From assembly GCA_025611195.1 (NCBI GenBank), contig GCA_025611195.1_4718.1: a stretch of 64,000 bases of DNA. The stretch is one strand, 5' to 3'. Shown one piece after another: positions 14,953 through 43,845 of the stretch. The DNA comes from a phage. Numbering within the stretch: position 1 is the first letter of the stretch; every line of letters begins with the position of its first letter. Under the pieces are notes generated by a model. That model saw nothing but the letters and a program-made list of their open reading frames with translations. It did no database searches and was not told where the DNA came from. The translations under genes and the position numbers were made by a program.

Positions 14953-15037
14953 GTTGGGCTCCTTGATTACGATAAGGATGATTGCGGTTTTGTGGGTTTG
15001 GTAGGGCCCTAAACAAAGGAACCCTACCAATATTAGG

Positions 15038-24665: not shown

Positions 24666-25772
24666 TTAAAAGTAATATTTCAGCGCCTCGCGAGAGACCT
24701 CAAGCATAGCCGCCGTTGAATTCGTAAAGAACTCGGCATAGCCCACAAGCGGCACCTTGATCCACGCGGTATACGCTGTAAGGTATCGAGAAAGGGCTAC
24801 CATAGCATCATCAGAAGCAGTAGTAACTGACAACTGACCTTGTTGACGATAAACGTCGTTAAGTTTTGCTTGTAGATTCCCTGCAATTTCGAGTAACTCA
24901 CTGGCGTACTTTTTACGATGGTAACTAACCAGTAAATCAACACCCGTATTCACAGACTCGAGCAGAATACCAACTTGTTCTAATGTTGGCATTGTAACCA
25001 CCATATCCCGTTCAACGGACGGTACGTCCTGGACTTCAAACCGTGCGGATTGAATGGCGAGGGACTGTTGAATTGATCCGGAACCTGAGGCGGTAACCTG
25101 ATCGAGTCGCAGCATACGGTTGCCCAGTAACGTTACGTTGACGAGTCTCGATTCGTTCAGCGTACTGTAGACTTTATGCAATAACGTATACGCATCGCGA
25201 TTAATCACATCGATTAATGCGGTATCCGTCTGTTTTAAGATAATGTCGAGCGCTCTATCTAACGTATTAGCGAACTGCTTGAAATCATCACGGAACGACG
25301 AAGACAAGAGATATTCAGCGATTGCCAAATTCTGTTTGTATAATGTATTCCCGGTCGTGAAATCGAACCCAAAACTGTTCCCATACCGTAGATGTGGTGC
25401 CAGCATTGTCGAAGCTTCGAAGCTTTGCGCGATGGGTTTACGACCAACGGCTTTTGTGTAGTGGCGACGGATGTTACTGAGTTCGAGTTGTAGTGCGCGA
25501 CTACGATCGATAAACCGTGCGATAAACGCAGTAATGTTCCGCAACGTTGTCCAGATTGCATCGATGATGGCTTTGATGATTTTCATCGCAAGCTGATTGT
25601 ACGATTCCATCGTGAGGAGATCAGCACTTTCTGTGGTATAGCTGGTCGGCAGCATACCGCCCGCTTGTTGATAAATAAGCTGGTGAATTTGTCGTTGCGT
25701 TGCTGTCTCTGGCACAGGTAATGTCTTTAACAAGCTTAACGCTTGAATCTGTCCATCATAGGTCTGCAGCAT
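24666..25772 (-). CDS. hypothetical protein (~369 aa), member of E-[SG]-[FY] paralog family
   Basis: start moved to ATG 25772 with GAGGA SD; motif LTMESYNQLAMKIIKAIIDAIW. Confidence 0.65.
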   Translation of the reverse strand: MLQTYDGQIQALSLLKTLPVPETATQRQIHQLIYQQAGGMLPTSYTTESADLLTMESYNQLAMKIIKAIIDAIWTTLRNITAFIARFIDRSRALQLELSNIRRHYTKAVGRKPIAQSFEASTMLAPHLRYGNSFGFDFTTGNTLYKQNLAIAEYLLSSSFRDDFKQFANTLDRALDIILKQTDTALIDVINRDAYTLLHKVYSTLNESRLVNVTLLGNRMLRLDQVTASGSGSIQQSLAIQSARFEVQDVPSVERDMVVTMPTLEQVGILLESVNTGVDLLVSYHRKKYASELLEIAGNLQAKLNDVYRQQGQLSVTTASDDAMVALSRYLTAYTAWIKVPLVGYAEFFTNSTAAMLEVSREALKYYF

Positions 25773-27057
25773 TGCCGGTTTCCTCAAGTTCGAGATGTGC
25801 ATCAAGATAATCATTAAGACCGTCGATGACGTCACAGACAGTTAACAGGAATCGGGCAAAAGCGACCGCCTGGAAACCGACGACGTTACGCGCGATACCC
25901 ACACGCTGAACGATAGCGGATGAAGCGGTATCGTTGTTGTCCATCTGTTGTAGCAAACGTTCATAAGGCTGAATCCATTCGTCCTGGTCGGCAAGGCTTG
26001 CTTCAAGACACCGTTTAAATTCCAACTGTCGTAGCGTAGACCATAACGTACTTAATGCGTTGATAATCGCGTTGGTTCCGTCGATAACATCGTTCAACGG
26101 CAAGAAACGGAATCCGTCTTTTGCTGATTGGAAAGATACGGCTTCCCACACAACGCTGAATTGCGTTCCTGTTGCGTCTTCGATGTCGTGTACTTTAAGA
26201 TAGGAAGCACCAACAGGTACGTCAACGACGATATCGTCTGTTCCGGTAGGCTTTAACGGCTTCTCGCATAACGCATCGTTGATGGCCTCGAGAATATTCT
26301 CCCAACAGGCTTCGTTTTCTGCAGCGATACCTTCTTTGTTATCCGCTGATGGTGCTTTTAGTAGCTGCATTAATAACGGATCGAGTTGACGATGCCATGC
26401 TGCGAGGATCCCTGTGTTCGTTACGATGTTTTCTGCGGTTTGCCGTAAATCAGCAATACTGCTTACCGCACCGCCTTTCGGATGAAGATATCGCCAGTTG
26501 TAGGGAAAGTTCTCCCAGAATGCGTTATCTTCATTAACATCGTATTCGGAAATAGTTTTCAACGCAGCCGCTTTCTTTAATAACGGCTTCACCTGACGAA
26601 CGAATCGACGATAACAACGATTACAGATATCGATCGCGTAGCGGTATAACTCGTTCATGTAAAGCCATAATGCACGGGTTGCTTCTTTTGAGGTCTTGTC
26701 AAAACTTTCCATGTTCAAGCTCATCCCGCTGGAAGTTTCCTCTTCCAGACCCTCGATGATTTGGTTTGGGTCCATTCCCATTCCGGCTGCTGCGGTTGTT
26801 GCGATATGTTTGATCGTGCTGATATCGCGTTCTTCAACTTCAGTCATGTTTGGGACAATATCCAGCCGGAGTTTATTTAATGTTTGAAGGTGTTGTTCAC
26901 CTTCTTTCATCACCGTGTTTGTTTCGTCGATTGAGTGAAACTGATTCTCAATATTACTGGCATCGAGAATATTGCCAGCGATACCGAACGATTCTACAGG
27001 TTCATCATCAATCCCTTGAAACAACGATGTCATGGGTTGTTGTAACACGTTTTCCAT
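25756..27057 (-). CDS. hypothetical protein (433 aa), member of E-[SG]-[FY] paralog family
   Basis: motif LNMESFDKTSKEATRALWLY; same architecture as neighbours. Confidence 0.7.
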   Translation of the reverse strand: MENVLQQPMTSLFQGIDDEPVESFGIAGNILDASNIENQFHSIDETNTVMKEGEQHLQTLNKLRLDIVPNMTEVEERDISTIKHIATTAAAGMGMDPNQIIEGLEEETSSGMSLNMESFDKTSKEATRALWLYMNELYRYAIDICNRCYRRFVRQVKPLLKKAAALKTISEYDVNEDNAFWENFPYNWRYLHPKGGAVSSIADLRQTAENIVTNTGILAAWHRQLDPLLMQLLKAPSADNKEGIAAENEACWENILEAINDALCEKPLKPTGTDDIVVDVPVGASYLKVHDIEDATGTQFSVVWEAVSFQSAKDGFRFLPLNDVIDGTNAIINALSTLWSTLRQLEFKRCLEASLADQDEWIQPYERLLQQMDNNDTASSAIVQRVGIARNVVGFQAVAFARFLLTVCDVIDGLNDYLDAHLELEETGNAADL

Positions 27058-27163
27058 TTGGGACTCCTACGTAGGAAAATCTTGGCGGGTGATCATGTCC
27101 GCCATTTACCTTCTGAACCGTTGATTCAGAAGTCAAAAGATAACCGGATACCAACGCCATAAA

Positions 27164-27195
27164 CCTTCCTCCAACCCAACAGGGAAGGAGGAAGG
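27164..27195 (-). terminator. palindromic hairpin element CCTTCCTCC-AACCC-AACA-GGGAA-GGAGGAAGG
   Basis: inverted repeat directly after stop of 27206-28495. Confidence 0.55.
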
Positions 27196-27205
27196 GATAT
27201 AGTGG

Positions 27206-28495
27206 TTATGCTTTTTCGGTCACGGCGTTAAAGTATTTCGCTGCAGCAAATACGGCATCCGCATATTGACGTATCGAAGCGCGAAGAATCTTGGTTGACA
27301 GTACCGTACTTAAACGCGCCATTTCAGAAACCGCGCCTACATAAGGACGGATGGTTTCACGATCGGCTTCAGGCAACTTGTCGAGCATATCACCCCACTT
27401 CGTTTTGATTTTCATACCGTTGAGTTTAGCGGTACGCTCCACAGAACCAGCCAAAGCTTCAACCATGTGAAAATAAGAGGGGTCGATCGTACGGAACACG
27501 TTAAGATAGGAAGTTAACGCACCCTTCAGTTCGTTATCGTCTTTGAAAATGTTTGCGTTCTCTATCTCACCGGCCACCGTCATCTCGGCTTCAACCCGAA
27601 TATTTTTCACCAACGTATAGGCTTTAATCGCGTCACGTTCGTTTTCAACAGCATCGAGACCTTGAATAACGAATTCCTTCCCACCGCTCTCTGGAAAAAC
27701 AACTTTATTCAGCGCGGATTTGATCGCCAGCAGGTATTTGTCTAAGATAGACGGAAGTAGAGTTAGGTCGGTGAGGTCTGCGACCTTTTTATTGATATCA
27801 GCTACTTGCTTAAACAGTGAATCTACCCCGCTTGCGCTTGCAGCGAGTTGTTCGATATGCTTGCTTGCAAACATGGCATTCGCTGACTTCGCGTTAGGGA
27901 ACATATTGACCATATTTTCAGTGGGTTTATCCAGTTGTTTGATATGGCGTTCACCTTTATTCACGGCGGTTGCGATGCCGACAATTTTGTTGTATGCGAT
28001 GACCAGGTTCTTGAACAGCATCTGGAGCAGTTTGAACAGCTGCTCAGCGATATTTGCAATGATTACCCAGACAGCATATAACGCTTGTGCTGCGCGTTCT
28101 TTAAAGCCTTCCAATACAATAGCTTGCCCTTCCACTAACTTATCATTAGCCTGGAACATGTCTTCATCGGACATCCCCAGGTTAGCCGCTGATGTCGAAG
28201 CGATCTGACGGATAAGTGCGACGTCGCTCGCACGTGCTTCCAAGATCGTTGGTGCGATCATGTATGCTGTATCTTCCAGCGTTGCTGAGGTACGCACTGC
28301 AATTTCAGCCAGTTCGCTGGATTCATCGATTGTCTCGTCGGTACGTTGAATCACCAACTCAACTTCACCCTCTTCAATTTCTGCGTTAGGATCGTGCTGC
28401 TCCGCCGGAATCGTCGCGAGAAGATCTTCGGCGCTCAATAGAGAGAGTTCGAATGCGTTTTTATTGACGTTATCAAAAAGAGAAATACGTGCCAT
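27206..28495 (-). CDS. hypothetical protein (429 aa), member of paralog family
   Basis: shares ...DVALIRQI...LEGFKERAAQALYAVWVII with 28505-29821 (...DVALVRNV...VEGFKDTVVKAMKKIWDII). Confidence 0.7.
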   Translation of the reverse strand: MARISLFDNVNKNAFELSLLSAEDLLATIPAEQHDPNAEIEEGEVELVIQRTDETIDESSELAEIAVRTSATLEDTAYMIAPTILEARASDVALIRQIASTSAANLGMSDEDMFQANDKLVEGQAIVLEGFKERAAQALYAVWVIIANIAEQLFKLLQMLFKNLVIAYNKIVGIATAVNKGERHIKQLDKPTENMVNMFPNAKSANAMFASKHIEQLAASASGVDSLFKQVADINKKVADLTDLTLLPSILDKYLLAIKSALNKVVFPESGGKEFVIQGLDAVENERDAIKAYTLVKNIRVEAEMTVAGEIENANIFKDDNELKGALTSYLNVFRTIDPSYFHMVEALAGSVERTAKLNGMKIKTKWGDMLDKLPEADRETIRPYVGAVSEMARLSTVLSTKILRASIRQYADAVFAAAKYFNAVTEKA

Positions 28496-28504
28496 GTTAG
28501 TTCC

Positions 28505-29821
28505 TTAACCTTTGGTATAGGCTTTAACGAGAGTGTTGATAAATGAAGTCAGTGCGCGAAGATATTGGTAAGCGAATTGGTTTTCAATACGGTTCTCTTT
28601 ACCGCAAAGCAGAATCGCGCGCTTAACGAGTTTAGGGTAGATCTCGACGTACGGTTGGTAGCTCGCATCAAAATTCTGCTCGTTGAAGCGTTTCATGGTG
28701 ATTTCCTGGATGCGCTCCATGGTGCGAATTTTATTGCGAGAGAACATCTCAGAGAAAGCGTGTCCGCGTTTTGTTACCATCAACAGATCTTTCGCGAACG
28801 TCAGCTGTCGAACGCTACGCAAATCGTCAGGTGTTGGTAGGACGTACGTTTCCGGTTCACTATCCCATTCAACATCTTCAACGATAATATCCAAGTCGAG
28901 GTAACGTTTAACCGCATCGATGATGTTGTCTTTTGACGCATCGAATTCTTTCAAGAAGACTGCGCCGTTGATGTAGCGGATACGTTTTCCGGAAACCGTT
29001 GGGGTGATAACGTCAGCACCTTCCACAGAACCACGATTTTCCAGCGTTGATTTGACAGCGTGCAAGAAAGACAGATAATCAACGGGAAGTTTTTCGACCT
29101 TATCTAAATGGAAGTCGAAGATGTTTAATCCTAAACCATCAATAACTGAATAGCCGTCCGATTTAAGGAACATCTGATTGAAGGTATCGATGTTGCTTTT
29201 CAGTGTGTCTACACCACCAACTTTGTTACGGTTAGGGAAAAGTGCCCACCATTCAGGTTTAAACGCAACCTCTTTATTTTCCGTGTATTTGCCTTTGGGC
29301 ATTTGTTCGAGGTTCGCAACGGCTTTCTGAAAATTGCGTGTTTCGTCGTAAACAAGACGGGTGAGCTTCTCGAAGGCTGCTGCCAGAGTCAGGGCAATAT
29401 CAACGATGATATCCCAGATCTTTTTCATGGCTTTTACAACGGTGTCCTTAAACCCCTCAACAACCAAAGCTTCTCCAACCTCAACACGATCGGTTGGAGT
29501 CAGCAACGCTTCGGAGGGCAGACCCAGAGCAATCGATGCGGATTCTTGAACGTTACGAACTAATGCAACGTCACAGTAGTTAGCCGATTCGATAGTCGGA
29601 GCAACATCAAAACTGATTTCCCGCAGTGCAGCAACAGCAGGGAAAGCACGATCGAGTGCATCTTCATGTTCGTCGATTGTCGCCAAACGTAATTCAACAC
29701 CATCGGCATCGATGACTTCAGCGGTAGGCTCCACAGCAAGCGCTTCAGCAACAATAGGATCTTTTTCAAACGCCTCAAGGCTGATATCGCCTTGTGTCGT
29801 AAATAGTGGTATGTGTACCAT
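28505..29821 (-). CDS. hypothetical protein (~438 aa), member of paralog family
   Basis: start moved to ATG 29821 with GGAGA SD; paralogous to 27206-28495. Confidence 0.7.
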   Translation of the reverse strand: MVHIPLFTTQGDISLEAFEKDPIVAEALAVEPTAEVIDADGVELRLATIDEHEDALDRAFPAVAALREISFDVAPTIESANYCDVALVRNVQESASIALGLPSEALLTPTDRVEVGEALVVEGFKDTVVKAMKKIWDIIVDIALTLAAAFEKLTRLVYDETRNFQKAVANLEQMPKGKYTENKEVAFKPEWWALFPNRNKVGGVDTLKSNIDTFNQMFLKSDGYSVIDGLGLNIFDFHLDKVEKLPVDYLSFLHAVKSTLENRGSVEGADVITPTVSGKRIRYINGAVFLKEFDASKDNIIDAVKRYLDLDIIVEDVEWDSEPETYVLPTPDDLRSVRQLTFAKDLLMVTKRGHAFSEMFSRNKIRTMERIQEITMKRFNEQNFDASYQPYVEIYPKLVKRAILLCGKENRIENQFAYQYLRALTSFINTLVKAYTKG

Positions 29822-29869
29822 GTGTTGTCTCCAGTAATGATTCAAAAGATAAACCTGGACGGCATATAA

Positions 29870-29901
29870 CCCTCTCCCAACCCGTAAGGGAAGGGAGAGG
29901 G
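29870..29901 (-). terminator. palindromic hairpin element CCCTCTCCC-AACCC-GTAA-GGGAA-GGGAGAGGG
   Basis: inverted repeat after stop of highly expressed 441-aa gene. Confidence 0.55.
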
Positions 29902-29923
29902 AATATATCAGTCTATTAACTGA

Positions 29924-31249
29924 TTACTGCTGTGCTGCGTCAGCCGGTTTCTCAGCCGCCTGGCCGCCGTACTCTTTCAGCATTTTAGCAGCGCCGTCCA
30001 GGACAGCGTTACCTGCCTGAACACCGTATTTCATCAGACCAGTCTGCGGGTTCACGTAGCAGGAACGTGCGTCTTTCAGTGCAGACAGTACAGCTTGAAC
30101 ACGCTGTTTTTCCTGAGCGGAAACTTCGCCTTTCTTAGACAGATCAGCTTCCATATCGTCACCGAATTTAACAGCGTCTTTGAAGCCCTGGGATTTCTTA
30201 CCGATGTTGCCTTTCAGCGCCAGCAGTTTGTCAGCCAGTACTTCAACACCGCTAACCGCAGCGGCCAGCTGATTCAGGGACAGGACGGTAGCTTCAACTT
30301 CTTTTGCTTCACCGGAGCGTTCCCAGGTTACTTTACCGTCGTTGGTTTTGAAACCCCAACCTGCCGGGCCAGCAACATCTGCGATTGCCGGTGCGTTCAG
30401 TTTATCAGCGTACTCGGTGTGAGATTTAGCAACAACGGTGTTGACGAATTTATCAGCACGGTCGTCAGCAGCCTTCATTGCTTTCTCGAAGGTGTCAGCG
30501 ATTTTGGTCGCACCGGTAACCAGATCGTCGCCACCGATGTAACCTGAAATGCCGCTACCCAGGGTAACTTTGGCATTTTTAGCAGCGCCTTTACGTTTGG
30601 CAATCATTTCTTTCAGTTTAGCAGCGCGTGCTTTCAGTTTGGTTGCGCCGTCGAAGATACGATCCATGAACTTCACGAAGGTTTCCCAGGAAGTTTTCAG
30701 GAAGTTCTTGATGGTTGCCCACAGTTTCTGCCACCATTTTTGTTCTTCCAGGAAGATCATGTTGGTTGCGTCGTAACGGGAAGCGGAACCACCGAAGCTT
30801 TCGAAGGACGGCATGGTTTCCGGCAGTTTGAAACCGATAGTACCACACAGGCGTTTCAGGTTACGCATGTGTTCCTGAGCGGTTTGTGCAGACATACCAC
30901 CGTCTTTTAGGTAGCTTTCGGTTGCAACAACGGTTTCCGTCAGTTCGTCCATGGCTTCGTCCATGGCTTCTGCGGTTTCGTCGTCTTTTGCAATTTCGAT
31001 AACAACAGCATCAACCTGCTCGATATCGCCACGAACTTCGATAGCCAGTTCGGTTTCAGCTGCGGTATCTTCAGCGATTTCAGCGCGTTCGGTCAGTTCA
31101 GCTACAACGGTTTCATCTGCTGCTGCTGCGGCATCAGCTGCCGGTTCTGCTTCAACGGTTGCCGCTGCATCTGGATCGATCTCAGCAGCCAGTTGAACCA
31201 GCTGTGCGTTAGATGGATTTGCGACAAGACGATCAAAAATAGAAGGCAT
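29924..31249 (-). CDS. abundant hypothetical protein (441 aa), likely virion/head-associated; distant member of paralog family
   Basis: very strong codon bias like the 740-aa gene; Ala/Glu/Asp/Lys-rich; ATESYLK motif. Confidence 0.75.
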   Translation of the reverse strand: MPSIFDRLVANPSNAQLVQLAAEIDPDAAATVEAEPAADAAAAADETVVAELTERAEIAEDTAAETELAIEVRGDIEQVDAVVIEIAKDDETAEAMDEAMDELTETVVATESYLKDGGMSAQTAQEHMRNLKRLCGTIGFKLPETMPSFESFGGSASRYDATNMIFLEEQKWWQKLWATIKNFLKTSWETFVKFMDRIFDGATKLKARAAKLKEMIAKRKGAAKNAKVTLGSGISGYIGGDDLVTGATKIADTFEKAMKAADDRADKFVNTVVAKSHTEYADKLNAPAIADVAGPAGWGFKTNDGKVTWERSGEAKEVEATVLSLNQLAAAVSGVEVLADKLLALKGNIGKKSQGFKDAVKFGDDMEADLSKKGEVSAQEKQRVQAVLSALKDARSCYVNPQTGLMKYGVQAGNAVLDGAAKMLKEYGGQAAEKPADAAQQ

Positions 31250-31274
31250 AATTTGTTTCCTTTACAATAAATTG

Positions 31275-31290
31275 CACATTAGCTAATGTG
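31275..31290. promoter_or_regulatory. perfect 16-bp palindrome CACATTAGCTAATGTG upstream of the 441-aa gene
   Basis: exact palindrome read directly, ~25 nt upstream of start codon region. Confidence 0.35.
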
Positions 31291-31292
31291 GC

Positions 31293-31317
31293 TTAAGTGG
31301 ACCGTTAGCCCACTTAA
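31293..31317 (-). terminator. stem-loop TTAAGTGG-loop-CCACTTAA overlapping stop codon of 31314-31844
   Basis: 8-bp perfect inverted repeat. Confidence 0.4.
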
Positions 31318-31844
31318 AAGCCCTTAAAACCCGGTGCCATAGGTTGCCCAAACACCGCATTCAAAGTACATATGATGTCCTGGATGCCATTGTCCCAATG
31401 GAGCCAAGTACGCACCATCTCTTCGTCTGACAACGTGATATAACTCATAAGTTTACCGCTGCTTTCCAGACGTTGGTGTGAACTTAGCGACTGACGATCT
31501 GACCAGTTATCAATCAATTGACCGGCAATCTGAACGTTCGTGTCTCGTCTACCCGTGTGAATGAACCGCAGTGTATCACGGATAAACTCCAGACTGGTGA
31601 AATTCAGATTTGGGTTATGGCTGTTCATTTCCACCCAATCGGTGATGGGGTACATCAAACGATAAAGGGTAGAAAGAACCTGACGTTCATATTTCCAGTC
31701 GTCGAGAGGGGTACCGTCGACCAAACGCTGATACAAACTAACAACGTCACGATCGTAGTTCTCCTGGCGTTTTACACCGTTAACCGGAAATCCAAAGAAC
31801 CCGGTACCGTATAACGTTAAAGGGACGTCACGAAGTGCACTCAT
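31314..31844 (-). CDS. hypothetical protein (~176 aa)
   Basis: start ATG at 31844 overlaps stop of upstream gene in ATGA arrangement (translational coupling). Confidence 0.6.
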   Translation of the reverse strand: MSALRDVPLTLYGTGFFGFPVNGVKRQENYDRDVVSLYQRLVDGTPLDDWKYERQVLSTLYRLMYPITDWVEMNSHNPNLNFTSLEFIRDTLRFIHTGRRDTNVQIAGQLIDNWSDRQSLSSHQRLESSGKLMSYITLSDEEMVRTWLHWDNGIQDIICTLNAVFGQPMAPGFKGF

Positions 31845-32743: not shown

Positions 32744-32782
32744 GAGTGAGCACCTATGCTATTTCGAAACAGGTTACGTGTA

Positions 32783-33889: not shown

Positions 33890-33923
33890 ATTGAAATCCT
33901 TATTTACAAATAAAGGAAAGAAA

Positions 33924-35129: not shown

Positions 35130-35132
35130 TAA

Positions 35133-38126
35133 ATGAGCGTAACCAACAAAGATCTTGCTGAACAGCTCAATCGCTATATGCTTTCACCTATTGAGATGCA
35201 GGCTGTTGCAAGCGATATGATCCGTTTGGCTTCTGATGGTGAATTAACCCTGGTTGACCCCAGCTGTCCGTTTGTTTATCTGCTGGAGGTTGCAACGGCG
35301 ACGGCTGCGAACCAGAACGCACGGGATGAGTCCCGTGTTCGCGAACTGTATCCAAAACTTGCAACGAACTGGAATCAGCTCTATCGTTGGATGTATGATG
35401 AGTCGTACGTCGGACGTTTCGCAATGCCGGGTAAAACGGAAATCATTTATTCGTTAGGGTATCAGGAAATCCTCGATCGCGCTGTAGAAATTCCAAACAC
35501 CGCTTCCTCCGATGATTTAAGCCGTTCTTACAGCCGTAAGTTAGTGATACCACGTACGACGGCGTTTACGGTAGCCGGAATGGATTTCGGGTTGCATTAT
35601 CCCATCGAAATCCAAGTGCAGGCGCACGACCAGATACGCGTTGTTTATAACACGGATAACATCAGCCCGTTGCAAACCTTGGAGAGTAACCAAGTTGAGT
35701 ATGGGGTTGTTCGTGTAAAAGCGGGCAAAGTGTTGGTGATGCGTATCCCGCTGTTCCAGTTTAAAACGCTGGTAAAAGATGTGCCGTTTAACAGCGTTCA
35801 CGGGATGAACAGCAGCATTACCTTCGAAGATCAGTTTTACCATTGTCGTGCGTACATGTCGTCGGATAACGATACCTGGACGGAGATAGCGACAACCCAC
35901 AGTCAACAGATCTACGATCCGTTAACACCGACCATCGCGTTACAAGTAGAAGGGAACAAACTTAACTGGCGTGTTCCTGAAATTTATTTGTCTCAAGGTA
36001 CGATGGATAAAAGCACCATTCGACTTGAGGTGTTGACGACGAAAGGGAAAATCAGCGTCGACCCGTCTGATTACGACGTGACCGATTGGAAAGATAACTA
36101 CATCGATTTGTCACCAAAAGCCGAACAGAAATACAGTGCGCCGCTAAGTGCGTTCAACATTAAAGGGATTTATAGTGAAGGGGCGTTGTCGGGCGGACGA
36201 TCCGCATTAACGTTCGAGGAGCAACGTGAACGCGTTATGGCAGGCGTGAACAAAACCAAGGTACCGATCACGGGAACACAGGTAGAGCTGGTGCTTCAAG
36301 ATGCGGGTTATGGGATGGTAACCACTATCGACAACGTAACAAATCGTTCGTTCCTGGCAACCCGAGATTTACCGCAATTGAGCGACAGCGTGCCGCAGGC
36401 CGGTTCGTTGATGGGGTCTTTCTATACGTCAGCCGCAGCATTGGTGAAAAGTAAGTTTGTCGCCGATAACGGCGATCGTATCACGATTAAACCTGACTGC
36501 CTGTATCGTGACAGTAACGGAAGTATCGCGCTGTTGTCAGACGATGAAATTGATCGTATTAATGCAGGCGACTCCGATGCGAAGTTGAACGCAGTAAACA
36601 ACGCCATGTTGTTTTACAGCCCGTTTCATTACGTGTTGGATGCGACAAGCGATTTCGACATTCATGCTTATTACCTGGATGCTCCTAAGATCGGCACACA
36701 AGCATTCCTCGACGCGAACGAGACAATCCCGTTAACCGCTATGGTGACCGGATACCGTCTGGACCGTATCGCTGAAGGATATCGTCTAAGCCTCATCGTC
36801 GAAGGTAACGACGCATGGAAAGCGCTCGACGATAAAAACGTGCATGTGCAACTGGGATTCAATCCGCGGGGTGAGGGTGATTACGCAACGATGTTAGCAT
36901 CGCCTACAACCGATGATGAAGGTCGTCGTTTGTTCACCTTCGATATCACCACGAATTATGATTTTACACGAATCCTGGCTGATGATTCCACAGCGTATGA
37001 ACCGTATATCGCACTGACGTCCTTCTCGATGTATGAATCCACACCACGCGATTACTGGGCGTCATTACAACAGTACCTGGAAATCTTCCATGTGGTGACG
37101 GATTACGCGCCGGAAGATGTCGACGGTATTTTACACAGCGCTTCCGATAATTACCTGGTTAAGAAACTTACGCTTCAAAATGGGTATTGTTTCTACCGTG
37201 AACGTCTCACCGCAACCTTTGGTTATGATCTGGATGGTCTTTGGATGCGCTCTCGTACGGTAGCCTCGGAGATTACGTATAAACGTTACACCGAGAACAT
37301 TCCGTGGGTGTATGAAGAAGATATTCCAGCGACGGATGAGACCGGTTCGGTTATCATTGAGCAAGGTGAAGACGGTACGTTGTCGGTTAAATACCTGCAT
37401 CGTAAAGGTGACCCGAAATTAAACAGTGATGGAAGCCAAGCCTATCGTTATCTGAAAGGCGACATCATGAAAGATAATTACGGTAATCCGATTCCTGTCG
37501 ATGAACGTGAAGTTCTGCGTAACCTGGACATGTTCTTTATCGATGCGTCGTATCTGCTAGCGAACGATACTGACGTGATTGACTATCGTAATGCGATTCC
37601 TACGCAGCTTATCGAGTGGATCAAGAACGATATCATCACGTTCAGGAATTTCTGTTATGAGGAAACGGAAATTTCACTGTATCCTAAACAATCGTTGGGG
37701 TATGTGGACGTTATTGTGGAGAACGGATTGGAAACGACGCTTCCTGCTGCCCTATCGTTTAACGTAACGCTGTACTTACCGGCTAAGCAATACGCGGATT
37801 TGGATCTACGTCAAGTCCTTCAAGCGATGGTATCGAAAGTCATCAATAAATGCTTAACATCCCGTACAGTGGCTAAAGCAGAAATGATCGCGATGATTCG
37901 TGAGGAAGGTGGCGACGACATCCTTAACGTTGAAATCGATGATTTTGGACCAGGTAAGAACCTCAGTGTTTATACCGCGAAGAACGACGGTGTTCGTTGT
38001 GCGGTGAAGAAAGAGCTTTATGTGAAAGCGGATGGTATCTTGTCCGTACGTGAAGCGATCGATGTAAGTTTTGTGAAACATGCACAAAGCAACAGTTCGG
38101 CATTAGCGCAAGGCCTTCGTGTCTAA
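35133..38126 (+). CDS. large hypothetical protein (997 aa), probable virion component
   Basis: long ORF, hairpin after stop. Confidence 0.75.
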   Translation: MSVTNKDLAEQLNRYMLSPIEMQAVASDMIRLASDGELTLVDPSCPFVYLLEVATATAANQNARDESRVRELYPKLATNWNQLYRWMYDESYVGRFAMPGKTEIIYSLGYQEILDRAVEIPNTASSDDLSRSYSRKLVIPRTTAFTVAGMDFGLHYPIEIQVQAHDQIRVVYNTDNISPLQTLESNQVEYGVVRVKAGKVLVMRIPLFQFKTLVKDVPFNSVHGMNSSITFEDQFYHCRAYMSSDNDTWTEIATTHSQQIYDPLTPTIALQVEGNKLNWRVPEIYLSQGTMDKSTIRLEVLTTKGKISVDPSDYDVTDWKDNYIDLSPKAEQKYSAPLSAFNIKGIYSEGALSGGRSALTFEEQRERVMAGVNKTKVPITGTQVELVLQDAGYGMVTTIDNVTNRSFLATRDLPQLSDSVPQAGSLMGSFYTSAAALVKSKFVADNGDRITIKPDCLYRDSNGSIALLSDDEIDRINAGDSDAKLNAVNNAMLFYSPFHYVLDATSDFDIHAYYLDAPKIGTQAFLDANETIPLTAMVTGYRLDRIAEGYRLSLIVEGNDAWKALDDKNVHVQLGFNPRGEGDYATMLASPTTDDEGRRLFTFDITTNYDFTRILADDSTAYEPYIALTSFSMYESTPRDYWASLQQYLEIFHVVTDYAPEDVDGILHSASDNYLVKKLTLQNGYCFYRERLTATFGYDLDGLWMRSRTVASEITYKRYTENIPWVYEEDIPATDETGSVIIEQGEDGTLSVKYLHRKGDPKLNSDGSQAYRYLKGDIMKDNYGNPIPVDEREVLRNLDMFFIDASYLLANDTDVIDYRNAIPTQLIEWIKNDIITFRNFCYEETEISLYPKQSLGYVDVIVENGLETTLPAALSFNVTLYLPAKQYADLDLRQVLQAMVSKVINKCLTSRTVAKAEMIAMIREEGGDDILNVEIDDFGPGKNLSVYTAKNDGVRCAVKKELYVKADGILSVREAIDVSFVKHAQSNSSALAQGLRV

Positions 38127-38147
38127 AACAAAATAGCATGAGCATAA

Positions 38148-38179
38148 CCCTCCTCCAACCCAACAGGGAAGGAGGAGGG
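38148..38179. terminator. palindromic hairpin element CCCTCCTCC-AACCC-AACA-GGGAA-GGAGGAGGG between convergent genes
   Basis: identical to copy at 60307-60338. Confidence 0.6.
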
Positions 38180-38188
38180 AATATGTTG

Positions 38189-40981
38189 TTATCTTACGTT
38201 GCTGCTATTCTGCTGTTCGCTGAACCAACAGTACACCTTGAGATCGGTACCGTATTTCAATGCGATATACGCATTCAGTGCGGCACAGAACAAAGACGCG
38301 AATGCCCATATCAGCGAAGGATCAACATCTTCCGTTACTACCGGGGGAGTATTATCCGGTTCCCATGATGGAGAACTGTCCATGAACGTCGTGTACCATT
38401 CCCGCCGTTGTTCTTCAGTGGTAAAGTCGCTATGAGGTTCCAACGCTTCTTTTGCCAGACGTCGATATTCGAACATATGCGTTGCTAAAGCCGATGAGTT
38501 ACCAGATTCGCCTTCATAGTTCGGATCCACCGCATAACAGAGTTCTGTGGAATTTAACAAAGCAATCGCTTGTATGATGCTGTCGGCAGTGCCTGCACTA
38601 TAGAGCTCGATAGACCGCGAAAGCTTTTCACAGAACGTATTTAACGCGGCAGGATTGGACACCTGAAGGTCGAGGCCTAATGTCCACGGATAGTTACTGA
38701 ACACGCCCGTAAACCGCGGCATAACACCCAACAGATGTTGTCCGATTACGGCACGGTTATAAACAGCCCGGTTATAGACTTGAAACGCAGCCTCCAAGGC
38801 TTGGTTATAATGACGACGAAGTTCATCACGCGAGTTGCGGAATCTGTTTGCCGCAAGACTTGTGGCTGCGACGCTACAAACATCGTAATCGGTGGACGAG
38901 AGCACAGTTTCGTTAAGATCGAACGCTTCCTGTTTCAACGTTCCGCTAACAGCCGCTGCTTCGCTGTTTGCTTTATCGACAACTGTACTCAAAGCGTTGA
39001 TGTAACGCTTAGCTCGGACCTCCAACCATTGTGCGATGCCGAGAATATCCACCGCAGCTTTAGCAAGGTCGCGTGCGTTCACGATTTCGTTCTTCAACGC
39101 ACCTAAACCTTTATTCTCAGGCGATGAGGCTTGTTGACGAATCATGCTGTTCAACATGGTAAGCAGATTATCCAACTCGTGTCCGCTGACCTTGTTACGC
39201 GCATCGGTAACTGGCCCTTGCAGGAATTTACGGCAACCATCGTTGTATCGAATCAGTTTATCCACATCGATCGATTCGTTCGTGGATTCCTTGAACTGAT
39301 CCTTCAATTCTTCACGGTAGTCATGGATTTCACTTGCGAGATTATCGATAGTGATACCATCGTGTCCAAGAAGAACTTTATTGAAGTTACCTTTCTCGAA
39401 TGCAAGAGCAAGACCTTCACGAATCTTAGCGAGTTTATCCTGATCGAGTTCACGACCGTTCGATAGCTCTTTCACTTCCGAGCTGATTAATGCCGAAACG
39501 TTACCCAGATTGTCGGTAACCCCTTTGAACGCTCCCGACCAAATCGTTCCTGCTTCAGCGTATTTCGCAATGGTCTGAATACCGACGGTGTGCAGCGATG
39601 CTAAACGTTTCTTCGTGCCTTCGGTAAGCAATGCGTCTTTAGCTCGCGTAAGTTGACTGTTATTAGCTTCCGCCTGCTGAATCGCTGCTTTCGCACTTCC
39701 ATTACGCCAGCTCTTAACCAGCCAATCAACCAAACGTTTTAGGATATTGACGGTGTATTCCATTGTCCGCCGTAACGTTTCCCACGCGCTTTCTGCGGTA
39801 TAGATGCCGTACCCTTCCATCTTCGTTGGGTCAAAGAAACCTTCCTGCACGAGATCGGTACGTGTGTAGCCATCAGCAGCTTCTACTTCCGCCTGGGTTT
39901 TATCCCAGAAGTCGTCACTCTTTGCAGCAATCGCTGTATCTTTAACGTCCAGGATGATCTGACCAACCGTTTGTGCAAACAGCAAGGCCGCACGTACCGA
40001 TTGTGCGAACATCCGCTGATATTTGATTCGAACGCATTGCATCTGGGTTAGCAGATTCAGTTGTGCGATCCCATCCAAGGTGCTATCCTGAGCAAGCCCT
40101 TCGGCTTTAGCGATAACCTGTTTTACACGTTCAGCGACATCACCGTACTGCTGGCAAACATCCCGCAGAATACGTACCGCGAAGACCCCGGTACCGATAT
40201 AGTTCAATAGGTCTTTTAACGACCATTCGGTCGGACAATCGGTCGGCGCAATAGGGAGTAAGCAACCATCACCGTCCATGAATCTCTCTAATGCGTTAAT
40301 ATCCTGATTTTCTACGCTCATGGGGATATCGACATCAGCCGCTTGCAGATCCAGCATCTGTTGTAGGATGTTGGTATCGGCTTGTACAAGCGTCGCAAGC
40401 GCTTGGCTGTGTGCGATTATTGGTAACGCAGGCGACCATACTGCAGCAAGCTTGTCGACGTGACGTTGAATGGCATACCCCATATCCTCGATCACATCGG
40501 GATGCTCGATAACCCCCTGAAGCGTTTGATGTAGCTCACCGAGTTGCTGAGACAGATCGACCATCATGGTGTTGAAGGTTTCGCCATCCTCTTTGTGGTT
40601 GTCCAGACGCTCGAGTTCATGTCGAAGCAATGTAACGAGCTGTCCGTTGCCTTCTTGCTTCAGCTTGCTTTCCATTAACGTAATGGCTTTATCGACGATC
40701 TGACACGCTTCACGAAAACCGGTTGTGGAAGGAAGCTCTGTCCATAACGCCAGCGGTTTACCGTCAAGGGCTTCCGGCATCGATAACGAAAGCATAGACA
40801 GTTGTTGACGTGATACTTGCTGTTCACGGTGTAATGTTTCTTTTAACGCCAGGAGATCGTCAAGAAACGCGCCGTTAAGGGTGGTCGTACGCGGTGTTGA
40901 ATTAATACCGTCAGTTAACGATTCAAGCACCAGGAGACCGTTATCAGCTGAAGAGAGTCCCGCGGCAAGATATTTGTTCAT
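38189..40981 (-). CDS. large hypothetical protein (930 aa), long member of paralog family
   Basis: long ORF; N-terminal ...TTGFREACQIVDKAITLMES... Confidence 0.75.
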   Translation of the reverse strand: MNKYLAAGLSSADNGLLVLESLTDGINSTPRTTTLNGAFLDDLLALKETLHREQQVSRQQLSMLSLSMPEALDGKPLALWTELPSTTGFREACQIVDKAITLMESKLKQEGNGQLVTLLRHELERLDNHKEDGETFNTMMVDLSQQLGELHQTLQGVIEHPDVIEDMGYAIQRHVDKLAAVWSPALPIIAHSQALATLVQADTNILQQMLDLQAADVDIPMSVENQDINALERFMDGDGCLLPIAPTDCPTEWSLKDLLNYIGTGVFAVRILRDVCQQYGDVAERVKQVIAKAEGLAQDSTLDGIAQLNLLTQMQCVRIKYQRMFAQSVRAALLFAQTVGQIILDVKDTAIAAKSDDFWDKTQAEVEAADGYTRTDLVQEGFFDPTKMEGYGIYTAESAWETLRRTMEYTVNILKRLVDWLVKSWRNGSAKAAIQQAEANNSQLTRAKDALLTEGTKKRLASLHTVGIQTIAKYAEAGTIWSGAFKGVTDNLGNVSALISSEVKELSNGRELDQDKLAKIREGLALAFEKGNFNKVLLGHDGITIDNLASEIHDYREELKDQFKESTNESIDVDKLIRYNDGCRKFLQGPVTDARNKVSGHELDNLLTMLNSMIRQQASSPENKGLGALKNEIVNARDLAKAAVDILGIAQWLEVRAKRYINALSTVVDKANSEAAAVSGTLKQEAFDLNETVLSSTDYDVCSVAATSLAANRFRNSRDELRRHYNQALEAAFQVYNRAVYNRAVIGQHLLGVMPRFTGVFSNYPWTLGLDLQVSNPAALNTFCEKLSRSIELYSAGTADSIIQAIALLNSTELCYAVDPNYEGESGNSSALATHMFEYRRLAKEALEPHSDFTTEEQRREWYTTFMDSSPSWEPDNTPPVVTEDVDPSLIWAFASLFCAALNAYIALKYGTDLKVYCWFSEQQNSSNVR

Positions 40982-40996
40982 AAAACACTCCGTTGG

Positions 40997-41027
40997 CCTA
41001 GGGGAAGGTTTTCAGCCTTCCCCTAGG
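40997..41027 (-). terminator. hairpin CCTAGGGGAAGG-loop-CCTTCCCCTAGG (12-bp perfect stem)
   Basis: perfect inverted repeat after stop of 41041-43845. Confidence 0.55.
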
Positions 41028-41040
41028 GTTATAAACACAA

Positions 41041-43845
41041 TTAAGCTAATTTACCGAAACCGGCTTTCTGTAGTTTCTCGTTGATGATTTTCGCTTCAGC
41101 GAAGACGTAATCGCGGTAGGCGGTCACTAACGCATCCACACGTGAACGCAAGGCTTCTTCGAAGCTATACCACGCTGCGATTTCACGAATCTGTGCGTTG
41201 ATATAATCAACGGTTGAGCGAAGCTCGGTTGCGTTTTCTTGCGGGATGGCTTTCACCTGGCGAGCAACGTCATTTAAACGACGGAACTGTGTTTCGATTT
41301 CTTTAAACTTACTGTCGGCAAGTTTGCTGAATTCGTCACCGGAACGGGTAAATAACAGATAGCTGTTGCCGTCAAGTGCGGTCGCTAACTGCTGAAGTAC
41401 GTTGGTGTCCGGATACACAGGAGTACCGCTTTGCAATACTTTCTCACCGAATTCCGCGAAGTCCTTCGGCGGTAAGTGTGCAGACGTTGTCAACTCGTTG
41501 AAACGGAAAGTCAGCGAATTATCATAAAGCATCCGGTACGCTTCCATACCCTGTTTCATGGTACCAGCCAGGTTAGCCAGACGCGGAGCAATCTCACCTT
41601 CTTTAGCGCGTTTCTGATCTTCTAACGCCCCTTCGAGTTCTTTACACTGGTCATTCAGATACACGATACGATCGGGACGCAGACGACGCATCTCACGAAG
41701 AATAGTATCCAGCTTACCTTCCTGGAAATAACCTAACGTTAAAGACGTACACGCTTGCTGAAGACGATCGAACACCGGTAAGGTCACCATCTCTTTACGG
41801 ATACCATCAACAATCGCAGAAACAGCCGAAAGTTTCTGTTCGGTGGTTAATGGAGCGTCAGAGACCGACTTGCTGGGCGCGCCAACAACGTTACGCATTG
41901 CGTCGGTATCCTCGGTTTTATCAACCTCTTTACGAACGTTCTCATCAGGAACATAAACGTTCGCGTTACGTTTCGCCTGCTTGATGGCGTCGTTGGCTGC
42001 TTTTTCGGTGGCCGCTACACTATCGGCACGTTTCTTCAAGAGTTCAATAATCCAGAGCAACAGACGACGAATCGCTGTATAGGCTGTCGTGATGATGACA
42101 CCGATAACAGCCATCTTCATGATACCGAACGATTCCATGGTCGGCTCTAACGCCCGGTCTGGCATATACCGTTCACGCAGTTCCAGATAGATCTGCTCAT
42201 CTGGTTTGCTGATCTCACCACGATGCGAAGTCCGATAGATGGCTTCGTCAATCTCAACAAGATCTTTACGTGCTTGACGGTCTGTTTCGGTCAAATAAGC
42301 GCAGCCGGATACGTCGTCTTCAAAACTTTCGAACTTAAAGAAATCGACAACCATCTTGGCAAGCGCCTCTTTCTTAGCAGGATCGAGCGTCTTCGCATCC
42401 TCTTTTTGCTTATCCATTTTTTCCTTGAATTTCTCTTTATAGTCATTCAAGGGTTTTACCGCTCTTGCCTTCAACGCGTTATAGATAGCTTTCCACTCAT
42501 CGTCACGTTCGAGGACAATGAAATGGTTCTTGAGTTCGAAAGCACGATAGCGTGCAACGAGCTGTTCTACCTGAATGTGAGCGAGTTGGATATCCATTAA
42601 CCAACGCGACATCGCCGAGATCAAACGGCTATAAGCGAACAACGTTTGGTAGGTTAACTTCATGTATGTTTCATACAGCTCAATATCGCCGCTCTGAATA
42701 TTGGCTGTTGGATTCATTTCCTTTGTTGCCCTGAAGACCTGTTCTGCTTCTCTCAGCGTCTTTTCGAACTTAACGTCATTAAACGCAGTGAATGGTTCAG
42801 CCAACTCATGCATTTTATCGTGGAGTTCGCGGATCCAAGATTCCTTGCTGTCGCGGATGGTGTTTTCATCATGGAGCGCAGTCTGATGTTTTCGTACCCA
42901 TTCTTCCACGATATCAGCAGCTGCAACCACCTGGACACGATCTGAAATCAATGGGACAATCGCGTGAAGTGCCCCAACACATTCTGGCGTGTCCCAGTGT
43001 TTCTGGAGGTCACCACGGAAACGGTCGATGTCTTTTAAGGTGGTACCTAAGTCAAGGAAAGTGCCGCCATTATGACTCATTTGTGCGACAAGATCGGCAA
43101 ATACCTTTTGTTTTTCGATGACAAAAGGAACCATCCGCATAAGCCATTCAGCAGTTGCTTTAGCCTTTTCTTTCAGATTTTTGTCGGCGATTTCTTTAAG
43201 GTTAATCGCGCTACTGTATCCTGCAAGTTCGTTGTAGACGTCGTTAACCGTCATCTCTTTATCCAACATTTCTTTGAAACGTGGATAATCTGCACCTAAC
43301 GCGTCGATGACTTCTTGGATGATGTCGTCTGTGGTGGCGATAAATTTATTTGTGCCACCGTAATGTTTCCAGATTTTCTGTAGCATCTTCTTAAAGAATT
43401 CGAAGACGAATGTCCAGATACGCTTGATGAGTTCCCAGACTTTCTTCGCGCCATCGACAAACAGTTTAGAGACCTTGGCAACGAATCCTTCCTGTACCAA
43501 CTCAACGCCGTTACGTGATGGGATTTCCGTGAAGAAAGCATCTGGCAGTTGTTTCGGGAACGCATCGCCAAGACGCATACGTAGTTCAGGTACATCGGCA
43601 CGAGAGATACCGCGTGTTACTAACTGTTCGTGAAGACGAACATTTTCTTCACCAGAGGCTACGAATTCGTTAACGTCAAATGAAACCAGTTCTTGATCTT
43701 CGGTGGTGACGACGCTTGAACCATCACTGGTTTGGATGTCTTCGTCAGGGAACGCCATCAGCATACCGTGACGCATTTCAACCACTCCGTAATCGGTTGC
43801 TAAACCGAATTCGTTGTGATCGGGAGTAATAACTGGGATACTCAT
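41041..43845 (-). CDS. large hypothetical protein (934 aa), long member of paralog family
   Basis: N-terminal ...GVELVQEGFVAKVSKLFVDGAKKVWELIKRIW matches EGF-helix motif of the ~430-aa paralogs. Confidence 0.75.
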   Translation of the reverse strand: MSIPVITPDHNEFGLATDYGVVEMRHGMLMAFPDEDIQTSDGSSVVTTEDQELVSFDVNEFVASGEENVRLHEQLVTRGISRADVPELRMRLGDAFPKQLPDAFFTEIPSRNGVELVQEGFVAKVSKLFVDGAKKVWELIKRIWTFVFEFFKKMLQKIWKHYGGTNKFIATTDDIIQEVIDALGADYPRFKEMLDKEMTVNDVYNELAGYSSAINLKEIADKNLKEKAKATAEWLMRMVPFVIEKQKVFADLVAQMSHNGGTFLDLGTTLKDIDRFRGDLQKHWDTPECVGALHAIVPLISDRVQVVAAADIVEEWVRKHQTALHDENTIRDSKESWIRELHDKMHELAEPFTAFNDVKFEKTLREAEQVFRATKEMNPTANIQSGDIELYETYMKLTYQTLFAYSRLISAMSRWLMDIQLAHIQVEQLVARYRAFELKNHFIVLERDDEWKAIYNALKARAVKPLNDYKEKFKEKMDKQKEDAKTLDPAKKEALAKMVVDFFKFESFEDDVSGCAYLTETDRQARKDLVEIDEAIYRTSHRGEISKPDEQIYLELRERYMPDRALEPTMESFGIMKMAVIGVIITTAYTAIRRLLLWIIELLKKRADSVAATEKAANDAIKQAKRNANVYVPDENVRKEVDKTEDTDAMRNVVGAPSKSVSDAPLTTEQKLSAVSAIVDGIRKEMVTLPVFDRLQQACTSLTLGYFQEGKLDTILREMRRLRPDRIVYLNDQCKELEGALEDQKRAKEGEIAPRLANLAGTMKQGMEAYRMLYDNSLTFRFNELTTSAHLPPKDFAEFGEKVLQSGTPVYPDTNVLQQLATALDGNSYLLFTRSGDEFSKLADSKFKEIETQFRRLNDVARQVKAIPQENATELRSTVDYINAQIREIAAWYSFEEALRSRVDALVTAYRDYVFAEAKIINEKLQKAGFGKLA

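Follow-up and report, generated by a model that had tools for sequence, protein, structure and literature searches.

Candidate head-protease processing sites in the internal head and vertex proteins of a Goslar-like jumbo phage

The head and vertex genes of the window

The window is a 64,000-nucleotide stretch of phage DNA (contig GCA_025611195.1_4718.1 of assembly GCA_025611195.1). An initial annotation described its segment from 24,666 to 43,845 as holding a dispersed family of virion-like proteins in which an acidic N-terminal region is followed by a Glu-[Ser/Gly]-[Phe/Tyr] motif and an amphipathic helix with a conserved Trp, and it likened the motif to a prohead-protease processing site or to a targeting signal common to head internal proteins of large myoviruses. 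This 19-kb region, with its flanking DNA, shares 95% nucleotide identity with Escherichia phage vB_EcoM_Goslar, a nucleus-forming jumbo phage of the Chimalliviridae, which identifies the window as that of a Goslar-like chimallivirus. All seven open reading frames (ORFs) of the annotation are present, on the minus strand, and their lengths correspond one-to-one to those of Goslar gp54-58, gp64, and gp65; we use the Goslar names throughout.

Gene order in the window is collinear with phiKZ gp84-gp97 and SPN3US gp45-gp54. Window gp67 corresponds to phiKZ gp84 and SPN3US gp45, gp66 to gp85 and gp46, gp65 to gp86 and gp47, gp61 to gp89 and gp50, and gp58-53 to the phiKZ gp92-97 block and SPN3US gp53/54; gp63, gp62, gp60, and gp59 pair in this comparison with phiKZ gp87, gp88, gp90, and gp91 only, and gp59 matches PF25618 (PhiKZ_gp91) at 1e-46. 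No phiKZ counterpart of gp64 was found in this gene-order comparison. The gp53-58 genes lie in tandem, on the same strand, just downstream of the gp89-gp90-gp91 homologues, an arrangement that recurs in 14 other loci. Like them, phiKZ gp92-97, gp162, and gp163 and the SPN3US family A proteins (gp53 and gp54) are encoded downstream of a gp91-type vertex protein.

On comparison with the inner-body proteins of phiKZ-like phages, gp53-58 appear to be PF12699 proteins, collinear with the phiKZ block, and they have already been grouped as such by Pfam and AlphaFold fold (gp54-57 by fold) (10.64898/2026.04.21.720040). gp58 (29924..31249, minus strand; 441 amino acids [aa]) is the dominant member and, in the Goslar lineage, the only one to pass the Pfam threshold, scoring 64.1 bits (E = 1.7e-17) against a cut-off of 27. 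gp54 (24666..25772, minus; 368 aa) and gp57 (28505..29821, minus; 438 aa) scored 21.6 and 20.9 bits, both under the cut-off, and gp53 (21267..24650, minus; 1127 aa), gp55 (25756..27057, minus; 433 aa), and gp56 (27206..28495, minus; 429 aa) gave no PF12699 match in the Pfam scan. Orthologues of gp57 bear a precomputed PF12699.14 annotation, gp53 matches a PHROG 'internal head protein' profile over residues 824-932, and BLASTP detects paralogy among gp55-57 (gp55-gp56, 1e-7; gp55-gp57, 2e-7; gp56-gp57, 2e-17). The genes originally listed do carry the motif, but the family reaches beyond the coordinate range first given for it, to gp53, which has four copies. Over its N-terminal ~330 residues, gp53 has a high content of Pro, Glu, Asp, and Thr.

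Published Goslar proteomics and imaging, on orthologues roughly 96% identical to the window proteins, place all six proteins in the virion, with ~2150 copies of gp58, ~330 of gp53, and ~50-70 each of gp54-57, and report that gp58 enters host cells by injection (10.64898/2026.04.21.720040); the gp58 figure agrees with the initial designation of 29924-31249 as the abundant protein. PF12699 proteins of phiKZ, SPN3US, and Goslar are all found in the virion, in tens to thousands of copies, and those of phiKZ and SPN3US have in common with Goslar gp53-58 an acidic leader, then one or more conserved Glu sites, then a helical body. The phiKZ and SPN3US proteins are cleaved by the S80 prohead protease; the corresponding cuts in the Goslar lineage are predicted from sequence.

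gp65 (41041..43845, minus strand; 934 aa) is a vertex-binding-complex protein, the homologue of phiKZ gp86 and SPN3US gp47, and sits between the gp85 and gp87 homologues. It is 96% identical to the solved Goslar gp65, and PDB 11fg matches it over its full length (residues 1-934). Its C-terminal half aligns with both phiKZ gp86 and SPN3US gp47; unlike these, Goslar gp65 has an extra ~450-residue N-terminal domain with its own leader and an E119↓GF site (the arrow marks the predicted or mapped bond). Synteny, Pfam, and the PDB match together bear out the proposal that the locus encodes head internal or ejection proteins of a large myovirus, namely, the PF12699 proteins and a gp86-type vertex protein. 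In the copy of the composite entry PDB 36za that was searched, chain C7 (gp65 residues 134-934) carries the label 'Inner-peripheral baseplate spoke gp32', probably a labelling slip.

gp64 (38189..40981, minus strand; 930 aa) is a lineage-restricted virion protein with only four relatives among 1.8 billion representative proteins, and in Goslar it is present at ~110 copies per virion (10.64898/2026.04.21.720040). It adjoins gp65, with which it has only the leader in common. With the gp64 relative P0362, the gp65 leader gives a match (E = 2e-4) that stops exactly at E↓GF; the N-terminal leader of gp64 itself is homologous to that of gp65 but has lost E↓GF. When the gp64 family was compared by hhalign with gp65C, gp86, and gp47, there was no profile similarity (probability 0.2%).

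The initial annotation had treated these proteins as one paralog family. This holds for gp53-58, clearly by BLASTP for gp55-57; gp64 and gp65 share with them a leader, cleavage, and helix cassette but not a body. The PF12699 profile scored 16.5 bits on gp65 residues 36-206, where the maximum in 300 local shuffles was 7.2, and 11.6 bits on gp64 residues 387-501 against a null maximum of 11.2. By hhalign, PF12699 matched gp64/gp65 with 21% probability over 93 columns centered on the motif and helix, and matched their N-terminal modules over the 12-column motif only; pairwise BLAST of gp64 and gp65 against the PF12699 set gave nothing useful. Because of the null comparison of gp64 with gp65C, gp86, and gp47 and this motif-only match, the idea that all eight proteins form one family was dropped. 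The gp86 homologues of phiKZ-type phages have a double site as in PF12699 proteins (SLE↓QY..TPTRS..TISQE↓AV compared with ALE↓NY..SPRS..VISLE↓DL).

Conservation and context of the Glu-[Ser/Gly]-[Phe/Tyr] sites

The motif E[SG][FY] occurs 16 times in the eight proteins (gp53-58, gp64, and gp65), where residue shuffles lead to an expectation of ~2.5; the other 46 ORFs contain 13 copies with ~9 expected. The extended form [MLVQ]E[SG][FYW] occurs 15 times in the window against 2.5 expected, and 13 of these 15 fall within gp53-57, gp64, and gp65. The shared motif is therefore genuine, being six-fold above composition-matched shuffles.

An acidic region, the motif, and a helix of high hydrophobic moment follow one another at eight copies: gp54 E56, gp55 E117, gp56 E129, gp57 E122, gp58 E168, gp53 E829, gp64 E397, and gp65 E119. 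The acidic region described in the initial annotation has a net charge of -15 to -27, but gp54 departs from this, with just -3 over its 56-residue leader. The amphipathic helix is real as well, in that the 18-mer after the motif ranks in the top 1-5% of hydrophobic moment within its own protein at most helix-adjacent sites; gp56 lies below the others, at about the 90th percentile. The conserved Trp of this helix was found in every Goslar-type copy, and gp65 E571 is followed by a segment whose hydrophobicity makes it transmembrane-like. AlphaFold 2 (AF2) models, built from shallow alignments, were of low confidence (predicted local distance difference test [pLDDT] 35-38), and we used only their secondary-structure boundaries; the model of a gp57-like protein (pLDDT 38) has a 50-residue helix starting at residue 122, and that of a gp64-like protein reached pLDDT 35.

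In the PF12699 proteins, the predicted cuts are LTME56↓SY of gp54 (codons 25599-25607), which ends the 56-residue leader of this PF12699-like protein and precedes the helix NQLAMKIIKAIIDAIW; PVE22↓SF and NME117↓SF of gp55 (the latter at codons 26701-26709, before the helix), of which PVE22↓SF is an N-proximal site that aligns with phiKZ gp93 E13↓S14; VLE129↓GF of gp56 (codons 28103-28111), followed by a hydrophobic amphipathic helix; and VVE122↓GF of gp57 (codons 29450-29458). gp58 has three candidates, ATE111↓SY, SFE150↓SF (codons 30794-30802), which is the family-wide first site, and FLE168↓EQ (codons 30740-30748), which adjoins the helix KWWQKLWATIKNF. The motif copies of gp53 are E338↓SF, E440↓SF, E455↓SY, and E829↓GF, and of these E829 (codons 22158-22166) alone has a strongly amphipathic helix after it.

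In gp64, tandem candidate cuts precede the helix at E380↓GF, E389↓GY, and TAE397↓SAW (codons 39785-39793). E380↓GF, the site singled out in the initial annotation, is present, but it and E389↓GY fall within an insertion of 22 residues that a 32%-identical relative lacks, and the conserved site is E397↓SAW. For gp65, the predicted cuts are VQE119↓GF (codons 43483-43491), by which the leader would be lost, and PTME571↓SF (codons 42127-42135), which precedes the transmembrane-like segment. The latter, with its hydrophobic helix, aligns with SPN3US gp47 ALE-111↓SW and its predicted transmembrane helix and with phiKZ gp86 SQE116↓AV. Among 120 natural variants per protein, P1 Glu, P1', and P2' did not vary at gp57 E122, gp64 E380 and E389, or gp65 E119 and E571, and P1' varied at a third gp65 copy, E506; these variants came from homologue searches that returned almost only Goslar-like proteins of 85-100% identity, and they inform population conservation, not deep homology.

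The position of the motif is conserved between lineages. When gp54-58 were aligned with phiKZ gp92-96, the motif Glu was the sole invariant internal column, and it was so again in a second alignment, of gp54-58 with SPN3US gp53/54 and phiKZ gp92/93/96. Cleavage has been mapped in SPN3US by semi-tryptic peptides, (E)GWKETLKDLFER for gp53, which loses a 125-residue leader, and (E)SLWDDIK for gp54, which loses a 137-residue leader and has a further cut at AQE-124↓SY (PMC10052503). Residue counts place these cuts at gp53 AAQE125↓GW and gp54 VARE137↓SL and VAQE124↓SY. At each mapped site, Glu precedes a small residue and, usually, an aromatic one (in gp54, Leu then Trp) at the start of an amphipathic helix, and the arrangement in the window is the same. 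For SPN3US gp45, mass spectrometry mapped a 20-residue leader ending at ASE20↓SIGFQD (PMC10052503), with which LTME16↓AIKFQDG of the window gp67 (44312..45631, minus strand) aligns; a short leader would be cut from gp67 at LTME16↓AI (codons 45578-45586). In phiKZ, the capsid protein is cut at E163↓N164 and gp86, gp93, and gp162 are also cleaved (PMC11297242); the gp93 leader, residues 14-84, remains on the capsid wall after cleavage (PMC11297242). ALE115↓S of gp61 is a candidate site only; it does not line up with the cut mapped in SPN3US gp50, which, once the start site is corrected, is apparently ATE↓SS.

The major capsid protein (7885..10107, minus strand; 740 aa; PF25620, 1.6e-217) has its maturation site at GCE150↓S (codons 9652-9660), which aligns with phiKZ gp120 GLE163↓N (E163↓N164), and the predicted mature N-terminus is SEELVQLSYDQK. 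The Goslar capsid protein shows no density for its N-terminal 157 residues, from which processing was suggested, with no site mapped (10.64898/2026.04.21.720040). The initial annotation had this 740-aa protein beginning with the motif, which is incorrect: FLSMES lies at residues 34-39 (SME38↓S), where it could at most be a site within the leader. Both SME38↓S and GFE78↓T, of the form [S/G]-x-E, are conserved with phiKZ gp120, which suggests that the 150-residue capsid leader may be chopped into pieces of ~40-70 residues.

For a family-wide test, 17 chimallivirus loci were located through their gp91 homologues, and 195 plus-strand ORFs were searched with the PF12699 profile. The column aligned to gp57 E122 is Glu in 35 of 42 non-redundant, non-Goslar PF12699 or gp86-like proteins from 14 other loci, and in these 35 it reads [SGA]-[LMV]-E↓[DS]-[FY]. 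Their P3 residue is Ser in 18, Gly in 13, and Ala in 4; the most frequent residues are Leu (16), Met (7), and Val (4) at P2, Asp (16), Ser (11), and Ala (3) at P1', and Phe (16) and Tyr (13) at P2'. These residues match the S/A/G-X-E rule published for phiKZ, with an aromatic P2' added, and E-[SG]-[FY] is therefore the form that a family-wide site takes in the Goslar lineage. In most relatives, another [SGA]-x-E follows 11-20 residues downstream, right before the helix; gp58 retains the pair, whereas in gp54-57 there is one site, fused to the helix. Ser, Ala, or Gly occupies P3 in the capsid protein (GCE150), gp58 (SFE150 and ATE111), and gp53 (AME829). P3 lies outside this set in gp54 (TME), gp55 (NME), gp56 (VLE), and gp57 (VVE), in contrast to the Ser, Gly, or Ala of other PF12699 proteins, and also in gp64 (TAE) and gp65 (VQE and TME).

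The S80 protease, the virion evidence, and competing explanations

A tblastn search found no protease homologue within the 64-kb window. The prohead protease gene was identified in Goslar, where gp212 (L006:16033-16839, minus strand) is a Peptidase_S80 (PF20034, 1.3e-78), 26% identical to SPN3US gp245 and listed at ~160 copies per virion in the published table; given the 95% identity to Goslar, the window phage presumably has a gp212-type protease as well. The C-terminal region of gp212 reads SPTME197↓GFQK where phiKZ gp175 (L024:20351-21163) has SPALE210↓NY and PhiPA3 gp205 (L025:353-1186) has SPALE↓SF. In SPN3US gp245 (L005:2809-3612), VAQE203↓ST corresponds to a 64-residue C-terminal propeptide, a self-cleavage mapped by mass spectrometry, and phiKZ gp175 was reportedly found by Thomas and Black in 2013 to self-cleave at E210.

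In each lineage, the protease's own site resembles those of its substrates. SPN3US has VAQE↓S in the protease and VAQE↓SY and AAQE↓GW in substrates; phiKZ has PALE↓NY in the protease and AALE↓NY in gp93; and the Goslar type has PTME↓GF in the protease tail and PTME↓SF, LTME↓SY, and LTME↓AI in gp65, gp54, and gp67. This resemblance is the main ground for supposing that the Goslar-type enzyme would accept Thr at P3 and, by extension, Val or Asn, and it suggests lineage-specific co-evolution of the self-cleavage site with substrate P3-P2. The proposed Goslar system is like those of phiKZ gp175 and SPN3US gp245 (S/A/G-X-E or A-X-E) in that cleavage would be after Glu, long N-terminal leaders would be cut at several sites, and the C-terminal tail of the protease would be self-cleaved at a substrate-like site. 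It differs in placing the stress on P2 (M/L/V/Q), P1' (S/G), and P2' (F/Y), with P3 relaxed. The T4 prohead protease gp21, of L/I-X-E specificity and with capsid-targeting sequences, is a more distant parallel, alike by mechanism only.

We conclude that the motif is most probably the recognition and cleavage site of the phage's Peptidase_S80 prohead (head-maturation) serine protease, gp212 in Goslar. The acidic N-terminal leader would bring each protein into the assembling prohead, where the protease would cut after the conserved Glu (x-[M/L/V/Q]-E, then [S/G]-[F/Y]), often at several places per leader. The leader fragments would mostly leave, although part may stay on the inner capsid wall as cement, like the phiKZ gp93 leader, and the mature protein would start with the first amphipathic, basic, Trp-containing helix of its helical body, or a few residues ahead of that helix. 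The proteins released in this way would be the PF12699 internal-head/ejection proteins gp53-58, the vertex-binding protein gp65, and gp64. The initial suggestion of prohead-protease processing after Glu is thus supported, since homologous positions are cut in SPN3US and phiKZ and Goslar has an S80 protease; we infer the cleavage of these bonds by a Goslar-type enzyme in this lineage, and likewise which of the tandem sites takes the final cut.

Goslar structures and virion peptides bear on this proposal. In PDB 36za, the capsid protein chain covers residues 158-740 and the gp65 chain residues 134-934, starting 8 and 14 residues after the predicted E150 and E119 cuts, respectively. The peptide evidence consists of the A-E-initial peptides of Table S4 of the Goslar preprint (an alphabetical series, to 'ELK'). 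Within this series, leader peptides of the capsid protein, gp58, gp55, and gp65 reach ~2-20% of typical intensity, depending on the protein: capsid protein peptide 102-118 has an area of 1,260-2,160 compared with 9,280 for one mature peptide; gp58 peptide 55-72 has 4,880 against a mean of ~124,000, and gp58 peptide 115-128 is likewise at just a few percent of the mean; gp55 peptide 52-62 has 1,130 against ~15,800 (~7%); and gp65 peptide 83-91 has 451 against ~19,800. These low values fit the removal of most leaders and the retention of some, as reported for SPN3US, and they also fit the presence of phiKZ gp93 residues 14-84 on the capsid wall.

Several observations weigh against cleavage as the general role of the motif. 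The gp65 chain in PDB 36za is continuous across E571, and so the structure does not support cleavage there. Among the same A-E-initial peptides, EIRPEIKDEYIMESYK spans gp53 E456↓SY (Goslar numbering; E455 in the window) at near-average intensity, which means that this copy is not cut to completion, and gp53 peptide 202-220 is abundant in virions, which means that an N-terminal region is kept and gp53 is not simply trimmed to its C-terminal domain. The sole peptide of this series across gp53 E827↓GF is a trace (area 541), and gp53 behaves unlike the other family members. The Thr, Asn, or Val at P3 of gp54-57, gp64, and gp65 departs from the Ser, Ala, or Gly of all 35 relatives and of the rules published for phiKZ and SPN3US, the structural context is drawn from sequence features, the AF2 models being of low confidence, and the mature N-termini in Goslar and the window phage are inferred rather than directly mapped. 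A gp53 peptide starting after F443 was considered as a protease product and rejected as a chymotryptic-type artefact; the dataset also has DFETPLVNVCF, which ends after Phe.

Some of these points could also reflect a mainly structural motif, serving for instance as the N-cap or start of the first long helix, with most copies left uncut here and only the canonical S/A/G-X-E sites cleaved (for example, capsid GCE150↓S or gp58 SFE150↓S). The P3 departures, the gp53 copy uncut in the published peptides of that series, the passage of the gp65 chain through E571, and the start of the helix exactly at Glu in the low-confidence AF2 models would all agree with this explanation, which we nonetheless consider unlikely. 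SPN3US cuts the same aligned positions right at the helix start, at (E)GWKETL and (E)SLWDDIK; the modelled part of gp65 begins at residue 134, and there is almost no leader peptide of gp65 among the peptides covered; and T-M-E appears to be an accepted sequence, as argued by the alignment of gp67 LTME16↓A with a mapped SPN3US site and by PTME↓GF in the protease tail. Other copies (gp53 E338 and E440; gp55 E22) sit within acidic leaders and are not followed by a helix, and a pure helix-cap role fails to explain those.

A second possibility is that the end of the leader and the motif act first as a capsid-targeting or scaffold-docking signal, as in T4, binding the prohead core or shell, with proteolysis secondary or absent. 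The likeness between the gp64 family and gp65 does lie in the ~45 residues upstream of Glu and ends at Glu, the phiKZ gp93 leader (14-84) is bound to the capsid wall, and the SPN3US authors infer a targeting role for long leaders. Yet conservation is strongest on P3-P2' of the scissile bond and not in the leader body, leaders are depleted among the Goslar virion peptides covered, and every studied relative also removes its targeting leader at Glu. The shared targeting signal raised in the initial annotation is compatible with cleavage and does not compete with it, as the phiKZ gp93 leader illustrates; targeting in place of cleavage strikes us as quite improbable. As to chance or compositional recurrence, the proteins are acidic and helical, rich in Glu, and short motifs recur easily in such proteins; however, the six-fold enrichment over shuffles, the positional invariance of the Glu column across lineages, and the PF12699 score on gp65 relative to its local shuffles leave it barely credible, and the shuffles and the cross-lineage alignment already refute it.

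Implications and other features of the window

Much of this biology is known. For phiKZ, 201phi2-1, and SPN3US, the PF12699 proteins, the vertex protein, the protease family, and Glu-specific leader removal are already published, as is, since 2026, the Goslar PF12699 set; the E-[S/G]-[F/Y] sites are a local version of known phiKZ/SPN3US biology and do not overturn the current understanding. In the literature examined, four elements appear not to have been stated: the site map for the Goslar lineage, the P3 departure from S/A/G, the family-wide aromatic P2', and the cassette common to PF12699, gp86-type, and gp64 proteins. The 2026 Goslar preprint mentions processing only for the missing N-terminus of the capsid protein (10.64898/2026.04.21.720040).

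The result is a map, with coordinates, of predicted Goslar-type head-protease cuts, comprising some ten bonds spread over eight or nine head proteins. Placing the mature boundaries correctly bears on copy-number estimates, on the assignment of unmodelled helical density near the vertex complex, and on the design of tagged or truncated forms of the injected PF12699 proteins. The function of these proteins has been called a key unsolved problem of chimallivirus biology (10.64898/2026.04.21.720040). The apparent relaxation at P3, together with the match between substrates and protease tail, would refine the S80 specificity rule.

A more speculative extension, which we think rather unlikely to be correct, is that the leader, Glu-[S/G]-[F/Y], and helix form a portable 'package-then-unmask' cassette carried on at least three unrelated bodies (PF12699, gp86-type, and gp64), and that cleavage exposes an N-terminal amphipathic or transmembrane-like helix, which engages lipid after ejection and helps to build or dock the early-infection (EPI) membrane vesicle, into which the chimallivirus genome is received. 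Its basis is that the helices are hydrophobic and amphipathic and that injected PF12699 proteins have been localised to the vesicle in published work, and nothing further. If it were true, each lineage would co-evolve its substrate P3-P2 with the protease self-site (VAQE in SPN3US, PALE in phiKZ and PhiPA3, and PTME in Goslar).

Near-identical copies of gp64 and gp65 occur in public assemblies on contigs of ~235-247 kb whose labels are Escherichia coli, Salmonella enterica, Shigella flexneri, and Enterobacter, and a 135-kb NCBI E. coli contig encodes a protein with 100% identity to the window gp64; the sequencing of enterobacterial isolates thus seems commonly to carry Goslar-like phages along as passengers. 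Away from the head genes, the DNA polymerase ORF of the window (45853-47604, plus strand) encodes 583 aa, and the Goslar gp68-gp69 region (L001:39691-42470) has a 499-aa ORF followed by a NUMOD1/HNH endonuclease gene; compared with Goslar, the homing-endonuclease insertion at the DNA polymerase may be absent from the window phage or lie elsewhere. At 14050-15811 (minus strand), flanked by the gp46 and gp48 orthologues, ~1.75 kb of DNA absent from Goslar holds two adjacent ORFs of 326 and 257 aa; a 2,051-bp query matched Goslar at its flanks only (13% coverage), and neither ORF had a Pfam match. This segment has the appearance of a variable accessory island, set in a genome that is elsewhere 95% identical.

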